This document shows, piece by piece, positions 21,341 to 62,653 of a DNA stretch of 64,000 bases. Below the pieces are notes generated by a model. That model saw only the letters and a program-made list of their open reading frames with translations. It ran no database searches and was not told where the DNA came from. Within the stretch, counting starts at the first letter, position 1. Each line of letters begins with the position of its first letter. The stretch lies in sequence record PZ445450.1; one strand, written 5' to 3'. This DNA is from a phage. The position numbers were made by a program, and so were the translations under genes.

Positions 21341-21760
21341 ATGAACATTAAATCTGATAATCCGGCATATAGCTTTGATAACGCTTTTTGTCACGGTCCG
21401 GCGGCGAAAGGATTCGAAATCGATGGTAAACTAATTATTGTCAATGTTGACGGGGAAGAGGTTGCAGTATATCCGGTGGCAGACGTTAAAAGCCGTCTAC
21501 AATGCCGCATAGATGTTACCGCCTATCAGCTTGATCCGGTCCGGGTAGTTGCCCTGGTCCTGGAAGAAGAAATTAAAGCAATGCACCACAGCAACAAGTT
21601 TATTGGTGACGCTCAAGATAATATGCAGGTATGCCGCTATAAAGTTAATGAAGTGCTTAAAGAGTACGGCTATAAGGATTTAATGATCAAGCGCGATGAA
21701 AAATTCCGCTACCGTAACAACCTGGCAAATCGGATTTTTGAAATATACGAATCATTATAA
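21341..21760 (+). CDS. hypothetical protein
   Basis: aagaggtaaaaac RBS; last gene of plus-strand block. Confidence 0.55.
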   Translation: MNIKSDNPAYSFDNAFCHGPAAKGFEIDGKLIIVNVDGEEVAVYPVADVKSRLQCRIDVTAYQLDPVRVVALVLEEEIKAMHHSNKFIGDAQDNMQVCRYKVNEVLKEYGYKDLMIKRDEKFRYRNNLANRIFEIYESL

Positions 21761-21780: not shown

Positions 21781-21806
21781 GGGGCTTAAAGGCCCCTTTC
21801 TTTTTG
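21781..21806 (+). terminator. rho-independent terminator
   Basis: ggggc-ttaaag-gcccc followed by tttctttttg. Confidence 0.7.
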
Positions 21807-22421
21807 TCTGCTCTTCTCCTACCATAAACGGCCCTACCTGGCAAGTGGAATAATTGACTAGCCATCAATCCCACATACTGTACAAATATACATGGAAAAT
21901 AACTATTGCATAATCTTTCATTGTGCGGTAGCAGGGCCATTTTTACCCGTTTTCTCTCCCAAAAGTGCACGTAATGCCGCTATTGCACAAATTTTAACCT
22001 GATGCACATATCCAATATCTTGTCAACAACTAAAAATCTTTATAAGTCATACACTTATACAGCATCGAAAGCGTGTTCTACGTGAAAAATCGAGTATAAC
22101 TATAGCCGCCAGATCTCAGAATTCACGTACGCACGCCATTCTATAGCCTGCAAAGTATTTATTCCAACCACAGAATAACGGAATAGTCAATACCTGCATA
22201 AAATAATTATTCGTGTAAACTGCATAACATAAATCAGCTCAGGTGTCAACATTTTTCGTAAACAGTCCGAAATTATCACGATGAGTTATCATAAACAGAG
22301 AAATCTTTAGTCGTCTAATGTTTACTGTACATTACTATACTGACTGGAATCATTAGATGACTAAGAAAAAGATAAGAAATAATTAATAATGTAATTGTTT
22401 TATCTGTAACAATAAGGCAAC

Positions 22422-22700
22422 CATGCAAACGAATGTCATGGCGCGACGGAGTCGCGACATAATATAAAAGCAGTAACCATCACCCCCGTGATAGTTTGTC
22501 TGCAATCTATTATTCAGATCATAGTTGCCTTGTATTTAGTTAATCATGACATAACAAGCAAGGCAACTATAGCTCTGATAATAGTTGCCCTGCTTTTATA
22601 TTATGTCATAGATTGTTAGCTTGTTAACTGTCAGCCTGTTGGCTGTTAGCTTGTCAATTATTAAATTGCTAATCTTTATCATGCAAACGAATGTCATGGC
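22422..22700. repeat. Composite repeat locus: 21-bp direct repeats flanking nested inverted repeats
   Basis: catgcaaacgaatgtcatggc at 22422-22442 and 22680-22700; 18-bp inverted repeat gacataatataaaagcag (22456-22473) / ctgcttttatattatgtc (22580-22597); inner palindromes cgcgac/gtcgcg and atagttgccttg/caaggcaactat. Confidence 0.8.
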
Positions 22701-22711
22701 TTATCATCTCT

Positions 22712-22767
22712 GTGTAAACAGTTTGGGCGTAAACTATTCAGGCGTAAACAGTCTATGCGTAAACAGT
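22712..22767. repeat. Four tandem iterons with 15-bp period (G[CT]GTAAAC[AT][AG]T)
   Basis: gtgtaaacagt, gcgtaaactat, gcgtaaacagt, gcgtaaacagt at 15-bp spacing; tgttagcttgt/tgtcagcctgt repeats sit just upstream and tgtgtc repeats downstream. Confidence 0.8.
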
Positions 22768-23141
22768 GAGATATGGAATAGTAACAGCCGTTATTGTGTC
22801 ATATTGTGTGACATTGTGTCCGGTGTCTGGTGTCCAGTGTGTCAGACAAGTTTTTCTCCTCTTTGTCAAGTGCTGCATGAAAAATTTACAAACTGGTATG
22901 GTAGCATTTTTGCGGCCCTGTTTACATTCAGTTGTGTATGTATAACCCTTGTTGTGTGGGCGTTTAGACGTCTAGACGGTTGGAAGTCTGCAGGTCAATA
23001 TCTAATCTATCGGCTGCTAACTATATCCCACACAAATAGTAAGAAATATAATTGTTATGTGCGTAAACAGTAACTCATGTTATCAATCCCTGTATGTATC
23101 GCCAGTGGTGCGCATAATGGGTATTATGTTAAATTGCCCGT

Positions 23142-23178
23142 AATGATAATGGTTCTCACAATGATAGGTATTCTCATT
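23142..23178. promoter_or_regulatory. Fur-box-like palindromic motifs
   Basis: aatgataatggttctcacaatgataggtattctcatt; same motif family as 10773 and 10903. Confidence 0.35.
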
Positions 23179-23420
23179 CATCCACACAAAATAGGTTGCA
23201 AATGTTGTGCCACTGTGTGAACGGCCTGGCCTATTAATTTCCCTCACTGCCTCGATATTTGAGAATTGTTATAAGAATGAGAAGTATTCCCATTTCGTCC
23301 GCCTGGCAGCACTCCTGTAGTCCTACAAGGACTCTAGCTGAAAGCTAGACCCTTCGGGCCTCCCTGCAGGTCAGGTCAAAATCGTGGTAGAATTGGGCTT
23401 ATTCAGATATTTCTGGCCGA

Positions 23421-23961
23421 CTCTTCAGGTCTGTGTGGGAAAAGCCAACCTCTCCGGCGGGGCAGGGGGAGGTCAATTAAAAAATTTACGTGGTGTATGA
23501 AGCGCTCTTCAGGTAAGGCAGGTATTATGGGATGAAACCCTCTTCAGGCAATGATATTTGTGGGTGTGATATTTGCTGGAAAGCCAGATATGACGGGACT
23601 CCCGGCGGGGATGGGGCAGTACAGACAGGGAAAATATGGGGATGTAGTTGGGTAAATTGATCAGACAGGTAGAGTATGGAATATGTTACAAGTATGTTAA
23701 ATATGGAGGGTGAATATCTGTAGGATTTGTGTGTAAAATCAAAGACTTAAGCGGTGTTGTGGTATTTTCTATAAATAATTCAAGTTTAATAGGTAATATT
23801 TGTCTCTATCCACTCTGTGTGGTAAACAGATTCAGATGATATTGGTTTGCAAGTGTATACATAATATACAAATTAAAGATACAAGAAACCCCCCTCCCCC
23901 TTCGGCTACCATTCACCTTTTCCTCTGACTGGTACTTAAACACTTATTCAGACTCTTCAGG
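23421..23961. repeat. Dispersed direct repeats of CTCTTCAGG with degenerate ~110-bp units
   Basis: CTCTTCAGG at 23421, 23505, 23540 and 23953; ctccggcggggcaggggg and ctcccggcggggatgggg recur; no supported ORF. Confidence 0.7.
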
Positions 23962-24311
23962 TTATCACCCATATATCATATGGCAGTGACTGGTGTCCTC
24001 CGGCCCCTCTTTCGTCACCCGTCCGCTTCGCCATGCTAATGCCATAGCCAAATGTTCGGTTGTTCACCCTGTTCACTCAGGTGTATCTCCATACCCCTTC
24101 AAACCGAAGAGAACAGAAAACCCGAATTACTCGGTAAAAGAAAAGAGAAGAACTTAATTTTATCATGATAGGCAAGAATGTCAAGGCATGACTGCTCACT
24201 AAACAAGCAAACAGTCATGTGTGGAAGGTAAGTGATTGTGGTGGTAGGAAATTTAGTTGAAAGATGTGTTATAGGTGCTCCCAGCACTTTAGCCGGGTAG
24301 CTAATTGTGTG

Positions 24312-24527
24312 TCAGTCCAGTGGTTCATCACCTACTTCACTGAAATCAATGTTCATGGTCTCCTCCCAACCATCAATCTCAGCACCAGAGTAGAGATCTT
24401 TAGGACTTACTCCCAAAGCCTCAGCAACAGAGTCTATATTTAACACCTCTGGCAGGTATGATTCATCGAATTCAAGGTAAATCAGGCCACGAGTGTTGTC
24501 AGCTCCACCAAATATTTCTATCTTCAT
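24312..24527 (-). CDS. hypothetical acidic protein
   Basis: cagaggagat RBS before internal ATG of track ORF 24312..24593; last gene of minus-strand block. Confidence 0.5.
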   Translation of the reverse strand: MKIEIFGGADNTRGLIYLEFDESYLPEVLNIDSVAEALGVSPKDLYSGAEIDGWEETMNIDFSEVGDEPLD

Positions 24528-24647
24528 GAAATCTCCTCTGGAAATGAGAATGTGAACAGGGTTTATATGTTCCAATGCACTGGAATTATGCACGTTTGCC
24601 TCTTCAGGCCATGCTTTAGCATGAGGAACCTGTGTGGGCTCGGTGCT

Positions 24648-62554: not shown

Positions 62555-62653
62555 GCTAGGTAAGCCCTTTGGCAAGGGCGAGGATTTTTAATCCTGAAAA
62601 TAGACGAGGTAGTCGTTGAATACATAGGTGGTTCGATTCCATCACCTAGCACC
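62555..62653 (+). tRNA. aberrant tRNA-like gene (candidate Lys-UUU-like anticodon loop; ~30-nt insertion before T-arm)
   Basis: Acceptor gctaggt/acctagc, D-arm gccc-tttggcaa-gggc, T-arm ggtgg-ttcgatt-ccatc. Anticodon region aggatttttaatcct gives UUUUUAA loop only with a 4-bp stem; ~30 nt lie between it and the T-arm; 3' CC only. Confidence 0.45.

Follow-up and report, generated by a model that had tools for sequence, protein, structure and literature searches.

The DNA considered here, a window of 64,000 nucleotides (sequence record PZ445450.1), belongs to a Vequintavirus, i.e. an rV5-like myophage of Escherichia coli: a megablast comparison of positions 21800-24400 matched 121 phage records at 90-96% identity, all of them rV5-like Vequintavirus myophages of E. 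coli. Our subject is the region 23281-23965, which sits within a gap of about 2.5 kb (21800-24300) that is free of open reading frames (ORFs). To the left of the gap plus-strand genes stop at 21760, and to its right minus-strand genes stop at 24312. Careful annotations, those of rV5 and of the BASEL phage RudolfGeigy, leave the gap blank. The same locus was drawn in the rV5 paper as a grey 'non-coding' box for which no function was offered; only a bidirectional terminator was expected in it, and the paper contains neither an analysis of its repeats nor a link to the genome ends (Kropinski et al., 2013). Below, we place this region at a physical end of the phage genome and discuss its possible role in DNA packaging. 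The features of the locus are collected in Table 1.

Table 1. Features of the gap and its right flank, in window coordinates; variability is the share of variable columns in an alignment of 15 genomes.
Feature	Position	Strand	Variable columns	Remarks
Tandem repeats	22550-22844		not scored	hypervariable, indel-rich
Hypervariable tandem repeats just outside the T-end	22792-22844	+		TATTGTGTCA x2.9 and GTGTCCG x3.6 (Tandem Repeats Finder)
Direct terminal repeat (DTR), 459 bp	22845-23303		24%	conserved block; 'T-end' cut 22844^22845, 'O-end' cut 23303^23304
Indel-prone hairpin cluster just outside the O-end (segment D)	23304-23399		82%	AGTCCTACAAGGACT, CTAGCTGAAAGCTAG, CCCTTCGGG
Repeat mosaic (segment E)	23400-23800		26%	
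CTCTTCAGG copy 1	23421-23429	+		preceded by CTTATTCAGA (23398-23407) and GATATTT (23406)
G-rich hairpin unit 1	23449-23473	+		CTCTCC-GGCGGGGCA-GGGGGAG; insertion hot spot at 3' side
CTCTTCAGG copy 2	23505-23513	+		within longer repeat ATGAAGCGCTCTTCAGGTAA (family D13)
CTCTTCAGG copy 3	23540-23548	+		within ATGAAACCCTCTTCAGGCAA, then GATATTT at 23553 and 23568
G-rich unit 2	23598-23621	+		CTCCC-GGCGGGGAT-GGGGCAG
Direct repeat pair	23622-23679	+		CAGACAGGGAAAATATGG and CAGACAGGTAGAGTATGG (family D19)
AT-rich spacer (segment F)	23801-23884		69%	
Nearly invariant block (segment G)	23885-24150	-	3.8%	predicted ~260-nt transcript: pyrimidine-rich leader, CTCTTCAGG copy 4, G5AG6 end
Predicted sigma-70-type promoter	24157-24184	-		TTGACA-N16-TGaTAAAAT; 11/12 consensus plus extended -10; faces the DTR
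Perfect inverted repeat adjoining the -35 hexamer	24187-24219			CATGACTG-N17-CAGTCATG, read from the sequence
Neighbouring coding sequence	24312-24527		20%	

The terminal repeat and the end of the chromosome

In the record of the relative EdH4 (MK327930), positions 1-459 are identical (100%) to positions 135573-136031, and both copies map to 22845-23303 of the window. Because this terminal repeat maps here, the region under study begins at a physical genome end. The exact repeat was established on the GenBank record of this relative, and terminal redundancies of 458 bp have been reported for EdH4 and HdK5 (Korf, 2019). Further GenBank records open or close within the box, Pr121LW starting at 22845 and bov10K2 v2 ending at 23304. 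The direct terminal repeat (DTR) is exactly a conserved block of the 15-genome alignment, and an exact repeat, fixed and conserved ends and flanking arrays of short repeats, as looked for in a terminus of the short-DTR (T7) type, are all found at this locus. At one physical end of the virion chromosome, 23281-23965 is the first unique DNA to follow the inner ('O') boundary of the DTR.

A DTR of 514 bp, backed by two-fold coverage and by PhageTerm, which indicated T7-type packaging, is documented for the Klebsiella phage KPP-1, of the sister genus Mydovirus. It likewise lies in a gene-poor gap between convergent gene blocks, and its reverse complement aligns patchily with the window. A palindromic core inside the DTR (GCGYATAAYGNGTNTTATGTTAAAT), used as a probe, retrieved 16 loci from IMG/VR, among them PVP-SE1-like (Salmonella phage), Ro1-like (Raoultella phage; L037) and Avunavirus-like contigs. 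The KPP-1 repeat ends at homologous motifs, ..GTCCGYC^TRGCA and TGCTA^AACAC...TTGTCAAG, and across genera one boundary reads ..GTCCGYC^TRGCA and the other TGYYA^RACA...YTGTCAAG. Taken from the outside inward, the two cuts share the two-fold symmetric motif TGYYA^R, and both sites co-vary from genus to genus: the window has TGTCA^G and TGCCA^G, and Mydovirus and Seunavirus have TGCTA^A and TGCTA^G. Such symmetry would fit staggered nicks at both boundaries of the repeat.

The DNA just outside the DTR, on either side, is more variable. The tandem repeats at 22792-22844 echo the TGTCA of the cut site and are indel-rich among relatives, and the hairpin cluster at 23304-23399 is missing or replaced in many of them, its consensus fold scoring z = -4.1 on the plus strand and z = -8.7 on the minus strand. 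Short hairpin-bearing insertions are also found in some relatives and missing from others: they measure 46 nt at 23316-23361 and beside 24600 (in L015, the most divergent relative) and about 70 nt beside 23470. They carry motifs such as CCCTTCGGG or GGTGACTAGGTCACC, those at 23316-23361 and beside 24600 are bounded by short direct repeats (CTCC..TGTAG and CTCTT), and they look like miniature mobile or slippage-derived elements.

Two sets of short elements were seen inside the DTR itself. The palindromic core GCGCATAATGGGTATTATGTTAAAT (CATAAT-N4-ATTATG, 23110-23134) is kept across genera of the Vequintavirinae, and occurs in unrelated IMG/VR contigs (L029, L040), sometimes in multiple copies beside DnaA boxes, as well as in E. 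coli chromosomes (E = 8e-4 for a match of 40 nt); its form suggests an operator to which a dimeric protein binds. A derivation of the locus from host sequence was rejected, as a single marginal 40-nt match, located inside the DTR, was obtained in 5,426 E. coli genomes. Fur-box-like sequences (AATGATAATGGTTCTCA, AATGATAGGTATTCTCATT) are present at 23140-23180, and KPP-1 (L026, 4741-4964) carries four copies of a 22-nt repeat family, two of which are 7-1-7 palindromes (TGATAAGGATTATCA, TGATAAAAGTTATCA). These boxes could serve iron- or Fur-responsive control, or be recognized by a phage protein of like specificity.

A one-strand mosaic of short repeats

An earlier note on this DNA, made from the letters alone, had described 23281-23965 as non-coding, with four copies of CTCTTCAGG inside degenerate units of about 110 bp, and had considered that it might encode structured RNA or be an array of protein-binding sites. 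Its view that no ORF is supported holds well: ORFs of at least 25 amino acids in this region are intact in just 0-5 of 14 relatives, and their substitutions are spread evenly over the three codon positions, with no third-position bias. Structured RNA lacks support for most of the region; only 23885-23965, the last 80 bases, belong to a probable transcript, on the strand opposite to that in the note. Folded as a single sequence, 23281-23965 was not more stable than its shuffles (z = +0.99 for one strand and +1.46 for the other). Consensus folds of 15 genomes remained at |z| < 1.5 in all 120-nt windows of 23390-23929 on both strands; no covariation was found in this folding, and Rfam gave noise matches only, both for 6 kb searched at E <= 1 and for 1.07 kb searched at E <= 10. 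The exceptions in consensus folding were the dispensable hairpin cluster (23330-23449) and the minus strand of 24050-24289. As for compensatory changes, the hairpin at 23449-23473 survives register shifts, and 23885-24150 is too invariant to show any. For 23400-23880 there is no sign of coding or of a conserved RNA fold.

The four CTCTTCAGG copies are indeed present, starting at 23421, 23505, 23540 and 23953, all on the plus strand and within 541 bp of non-coding DNA (spacings of 84, 35 and 413 bp). They are kept in 15 genomes, with three single-base changes in copies 2 and 3. In the whole window the motif occurs eight times, always on the plus strand, against 0.4 in shuffles. The remaining four window copies (24600, 37009, 43642 and 44509) lie under minus-strand genes, and in the complete RudolfGeigy genome all copies outside the box lie in genes whose sense strand has CCTGAAGAG (five sense, none antisense). 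Because these copies always follow the coding strand, that share of the excess is a codon effect, and a genome-wide strand-specific signal, such as a nick site or a Chi-like element, was rejected on the same ground. The non-coding cluster is the only one in the complete RudolfGeigy genome. Three other identities of the motif were likewise rejected: a sigma-70 promoter built on it would have the wrong spacings to -10-like hexamers; a hammerhead ribozyme is suggested by the CUGANGA present in CCUGAAGAG, but GAAA, the helix arrangement and an Rfam match are missing; and for a tRNA-like anticodon loop (CUGAAGA) the flanks are unpaired, ARAGORN finding no tRNA here. We also would like to point out a fifth conserved copy (24600-24608). 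As CCTGAAGAGG of the minus strand it precedes by 5 nt the GTG with which ORF 24312-24593 starts, and would supply the Shine-Dalgarno sequence (GAGG) of that ORF; the start of this ORF differs between annotations (282 nt in rV5, 216 nt in BASEL).

The second repeat of the earlier note, CTC(T)CCGGCGGGG, was recovered in two copies, at 23449-23462 and 23599-23610, which are 148 bp apart in register, and its C-rich tract is CCCCCCTCCCCC, located at 23889-23900. The units of about 110 bp did not stand up: Tandem Repeats Finder detected no array in 23281-23965, the CTCTTCAGG spacings are those given above, and the two putative units are alike over about 22 nt only, with a score reached by 4 of 300 shuffles. 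Nor did the program find in 23281-23965 an iteron-type array of regularly spaced or head-to-tail copies. The region is a mosaic of at least four families of short direct repeats on one strand, namely CTCTTCAGG (four copies), TTATTCAGA (two), GATATTT (three) and CAGACAGG..TATGG (two). The hairpin of G-rich unit 1 is retained in most variants with register shifts, the plus strand folding better in 11 of 12 variants, and ATGATATTT..GTGATATTT near CTCTTCAGG copy 3 aligns with KPP-1. Segment E, which holds most of this mosaic, is constrained although non-coding: 26% of its columns are variable, against 69-82% in the flanking spacers D and F. In three relatives (L005, L006 and L008) other sequence stands in place of segment F, and the composition of the plus strand flips from G>C to C>G at about 23850.

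Elements of the mosaic recur in other genera. We counted CTTCAG over 660 nt past the GTCCGYC^ boundary at six non-redundant loci from four genera. On the same strand there are four copies here, three in KPP-1, two in the Ro1-like contig, five in the PVP-SE1-like contig, one in a second Seunavirus-like contig and three in the Avunavirus-like contig, that is, 2-5 copies at five of the six loci; the opposite strand has none at any of them, and shuffles give 0.1-0.2 per locus. Runs of the form CTCCGG(G)CGGGG.GGGG are common to the Vequintavirus, Mydovirus (KPP-1) and Seunavirus (PVP-SE1) loci, the G-runs of the Avunavirus-like contig being of a different form, and GATATTT repeats are present at the Vequintavirus, Mydovirus and Avunavirus-like loci. 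Synteny was also tried as a route to other genera and abandoned: the neighbouring 101-aa proteins are uninformative, one being genus-specific and the other placed elsewhere in Seunavirus and Mydovirus.

The nearly invariant block and its predicted promoter

On the minus strand, the block 23885-24150 reads CCUGAAGAG at 23953-23961, where CTCTTCAGG copy 4 lies, and the C-tract of the earlier note is on this strand a G5AG6 run (23900-23889). Across 118 genomes, the 406 bp that enclose the block (23885-24290) show 95.6-99.3% identity, and the invariance starts a few bases past the predicted transcript start and stops exactly after G5AG6. From this arrangement we infer that minus-strand transcription passes through 23885-24150. 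In the most divergent relative, L015, both hexamers and the TG of the predicted promoter are kept, and the spacer is altered in sequence and in length (from 16 to 18). Consensus scans of KPP-1, PVP-SE1 and the Avunavirus-like contig revealed promoter-like sites of matching place and direction; these sites also have an extended -10, and the invariant block was not found in those genera by nhmmer. The perfect inverted repeat upstream of the promoter could be an operator or an upstream terminator, and the minus-strand consensus fold of 24170-24289 scores z = -5.2.

Past the G-run, the minus strand is C-rich and G-poor (C:G = 106:40 over 23450-23799). In L005, L006 and L008 no T-rich DNA follows the G-run, and the only pairing predicted is a long-range one between the G-run and the pyrimidine leader. 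Several candidate functions of the block were rejected. With regard to small proteins, an 18-aa ORF gains a stop codon in four relatives, and a 39-aa ORF has only non-synonymous changes, confined to a 5-nt patch, with zero synonymous ones. Rfam had no match for the block either. A tandem duplication of the block was set aside, the only similarity between 23885-24150 and 23281-23884 being the 12-mer GACTCTTCAGGT. A CsrA-type GGA sponge was dismissed, as about 11 GGA in 330 nt (by hand count) is near the expectation from base composition. A scan for an intrinsic terminator at the C-tract/G-run was negative at 23885-23910 on both strands.

From this block, host RNA polymerase may make a new non-coding RNA, common to the genus, whose synthesis toward the DTR would be coupled mechanistically to end formation, an idea that we regard with considerable doubt; no transcriptome study of Vequintavirinae was found in the literature searched. 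Such an RNA would comprise a pyrimidine leader, several Shine-Dalgarno-like purine runs and the G5AG6 end. Its synthesis might be a host-polymerase version of the T7 switch that depends on pausing at the concatemer junction, with G-rich template hairpins and the CTCTTCAGG array as a platform for pausing and terminase loading; alternatively, the RNA might act as a G-run-dependent replication primer.

A putative packaging region and its alternatives

We tentatively propose, at a confidence a little short of evenly balanced, that 23281-23965 acts in cis, as DNA, in the processing and packaging of concatemers. The position of the DTR, the conservation of the motifs and the lack of a coding or structured-RNA signal are established; our confidence goes no further because protein binding, transcription and the packaging role are all inferred. 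Since the non-coding DNA that contains the array starts where the DTR ends, these repeats would most likely be signals for DNA cutting and packaging and not structured RNA. An array of protein-binding sites, as the earlier note had it, is the part of its suggestion that fits best, although the note missed the key context, the terminal repeat. According to this proposal, the same-strand CTCTTCAGG/TTCAGR, GATATTT and CTCYCCGGCGGGG elements would form an asymmetric recognition platform, which would bind terminase or an accessory protein and set the side of the repeat where packaging starts. Staggered nicks would fall at the symmetric TGYYA^R motifs (22844/5 and, on the opposite strand, 23303/4), after which the repeat would be duplicated. 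The host-type promoter (24184-24157, minus strand) would drive transcription through the invariant G-rich block toward the array and the DTR, and this transcription could be coupled to end formation in a manner resembling the pausing of T7 RNA polymerase at the concatemer junction.

The closest known counterpart is the concatemer junction of T7 and T3. Short-repeat arrays and pac signals flank the terminal repeat of these phages. Shared with T7 and T3 are the short exact DTR with fixed ends (the sister phage KPP-1 being of T7 type by PhageTerm), the short direct-repeat arrays just outside the terminal repeat, and a promoter (predicted here, phiOR in T7/T3) a few hundred bp away that is directed into the junction. 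In T7 and T3, RNA polymerase pauses at the junction and recruits gp18/gp19, and the pausing starts maturation and packaging (PMC3276506). Differently from these phages, we deal here with a 137-kb myovirus that has no phage RNA polymerase and a promoter of the host sigma-70 type; its repeat motifs are unrelated in sequence, its array is one-sided, with other tandem repeats on the opposite side of the DTR, and a nearly invariant block of 260 nt stands in Vequintavirus between promoter and array. A second comparison is with lambda cos, where cosN has two-fold symmetry, like the cut motifs here, and where cosB, the set of small-subunit sites, is a one-sided cluster of short repeats in the same orientation within packaged DNA. 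In our case, however, the staggered cuts would be 459 bp apart rather than 12 and would leave the repeat duplicated, where lambda has cohesive ends; the two loci are not similar in sequence, and no terminase small subunit is annotated in the relative examined.

Several points weigh against a packaging role. Two Vequintavirus genome announcements describe circularly permuted or headful genomes on the basis of PhageTerm, in conflict with fixed ends; these calls come from default PhageTerm runs and are counter-evidence of limited weight. No protein is known or predicted to bind the array motifs. The distance from the cut to the first CTCTTCAGG copy is variable (117 bp here, down to about 50 bp where the hairpin cluster is absent), and the spacings between copies have no helical phasing. 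Within segment E, fewer motif columns are variable (3 of 27) than other columns (101 of 374), but the difference is not significant (p = 0.07). Some CTTCAG copies in PVP-SE1 and in the Ro1-like locus (L037) fall in coding sequence, in the loop of a terminator-like hairpin, in a stop codon or in a -35 hexamer, so that part of the enrichment across genera may have other causes. The nhmmer profiles of segments E and G had no match outside the genus, and as those of segment E match none, homology to other genera is at the level of motifs only.

A replication origin, or primer-forming region, is a doubtful alternative. Here the minus-strand G-rich RNA ending in G5AG6 would prime DNA synthesis, with a persistent RNA-DNA hybrid or a G-quadruplex beside the AT-rich DNA at 23640-23885 and the repeats as iterons or accessory sites. 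ColE1 RNA II and mitochondrial CSBII, the latter with a very similar G-run, are known cases in which primer formation depends on a G-run. The order of elements in the DNA (promoter, G-rich transcript, G5AG6, an AT-rich segment with 62-74% AT over 23650-23850, and a sharp skew switch at about 23850) would suit such an origin, as would the G-runs that flank the AT-rich segment to left and right, on opposite strands, and the DnaA-box-like sequences TCATCCACA (23176-23184) and TATCCAC (about 23806). The likeness to the ColE1 and CSBII systems consists of a promoter-driven G-rich RNA with a G5AG6 end followed by T-rich DNA; the G block here, on the other hand, is genus-specific. It is absent from other genera that still carry the repeat array, segment F is poorly conserved and replaced in some relatives, the repeats are not regularly spaced iterons, and one DnaA-like box is deleted in L005, L006 and L008. 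In the rV5 genome, skew changes at 104425-105475, in the ORF-free gap between genes 163 and 164, were encountered in a search for the origin, but the authors put them down to a switch in the direction of transcription (Kropinski et al., 2013).

An action at the RNA level is unlikely in our view. The downstream tail of the predicted transcript might be a zone of Rho-dependent termination that guards the DTR from host RNA polymerase, or its CCUGAAGAG repeats might be bound by an RNA-binding factor. C-rich, G-poor, unstructured RNA is the usual signature of Rho loading sites, and the minus strand of 23450-23799 has this composition, without stable conserved structure; the promoter is directed into the region, and the flank corresponding to segment E is C-rich on the same strand in KPP-1 and PVP-SE1. 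The conserved 9-mers, GATATTT and the G-rich hairpin nevertheless exceed the needs of a Rho site defined by composition only, the hairpin unit folds better on the plus strand, and the lack of an Rfam family and of covariation tells against this reading as well.

That the array has no specific function, its repeats being relics of slippage, duplication and hairpin insertion in a tolerant spacer that look conserved as the sampled genus is young, is quite improbable. This would account for the richness of the box in indels, tandem repeats and 46-nt hairpin insertions between short direct repeats, and for motif columns not significantly less variable than their surroundings, and the identity here is 85% or more in each of the 118 genomes that match. 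The low variability of segment E relative to the adjacent spacers speaks against it, as does the recurrence of CTTCAG and G-runs, with strand and side of the DTR unchanged, among genera without detectable nucleotide homology. A repeat-rich non-coding region beside the terminal repeat of T5 is said to halt first-step DNA transfer, and a comparable ejection-pause signal would match a large repeat- and palindrome-rich non-coding region near the genome end, but it is very improbable here, as two-step transfer is not known for rV5-like phages and the stretch from the end to the array is free of early genes, both flanking gene blocks being transcribed toward the ends.

Some features of the window lie apart from the array. 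In the box, GTAAACAG occurs six times on the plus strand and once on the minus strand (22253-22767, 23063 and 23822), including a 15-bp tandem array (GTAAACAGTTTAGGC x3.6, 22714-22767), and is a second candidate protein-binding repeat, on the opposite side of the DTR. An exact 21-nt direct repeat, CATGCAAACGAATGTCATGGC, stands at 22422-22442 and 22680-22700 (258 bp apart) and encloses the perfect 18-nt inverted repeat GACATAATATAAAAGCAG / CTGCTTTTATATTATGTC (22456-22473 and 22590-22607). A 37-aa minus-strand ORF at 22315-22428 is intact in 13 of 13 relatives, and three further minus-strand ORFs of 27-30 aa at 21918-22279 are intact in 10-12 of 13; all lack third-position bias and are preceded, on their own strand, by TTGACA-like hexamers. 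They may be micro-genes missed in annotation, or may be due to chance. In the tRNA cluster, ARAGORN calls at 62555-62653 a 99-nt tRNA of undetermined type with a four-base anticodon (atcc), where RudolfGeigy has an annotated tRNA-Lys of 97 nt; this tRNA may contain an intron or be otherwise unusual. The RudolfGeigy genes for the terminase large subunit, DNA polymerase and anaerobic NTP reductase are annotated as two or three joined pieces (L023 683-2817; L024 19749-22802; L025 13164-15331), which indicates introns or other intervening sequences in core genes of the genus.

The non-coding box and the 458-bp redundancy have each been published, separately, and we found no paper that links the two or describes the boundary motifs, the flanking array or the invariant promoter-driven block. 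The rV5-like phages are widely used in biocontrol of O157, in phage therapy cocktails and as BASEL models, and the 2.5-kb box has been left blank since 2013. With the physical ends placed in this box, a common start point is available, and about 120 genomes could open at 22845 instead of at arbitrary positions. The symmetric cut motifs and the one-sided array are concrete elements that can be mutated to learn how DNA is recognized and cut in a large myovirus with a short DTR (Cas13a counter-selection has already been employed on EdH4), and a known packaging signal would predict which DNA is packageable or transducible. The hyper-conserved, putatively promoter-driven block of 260 nt is, moreover, a candidate phage regulatory RNA.

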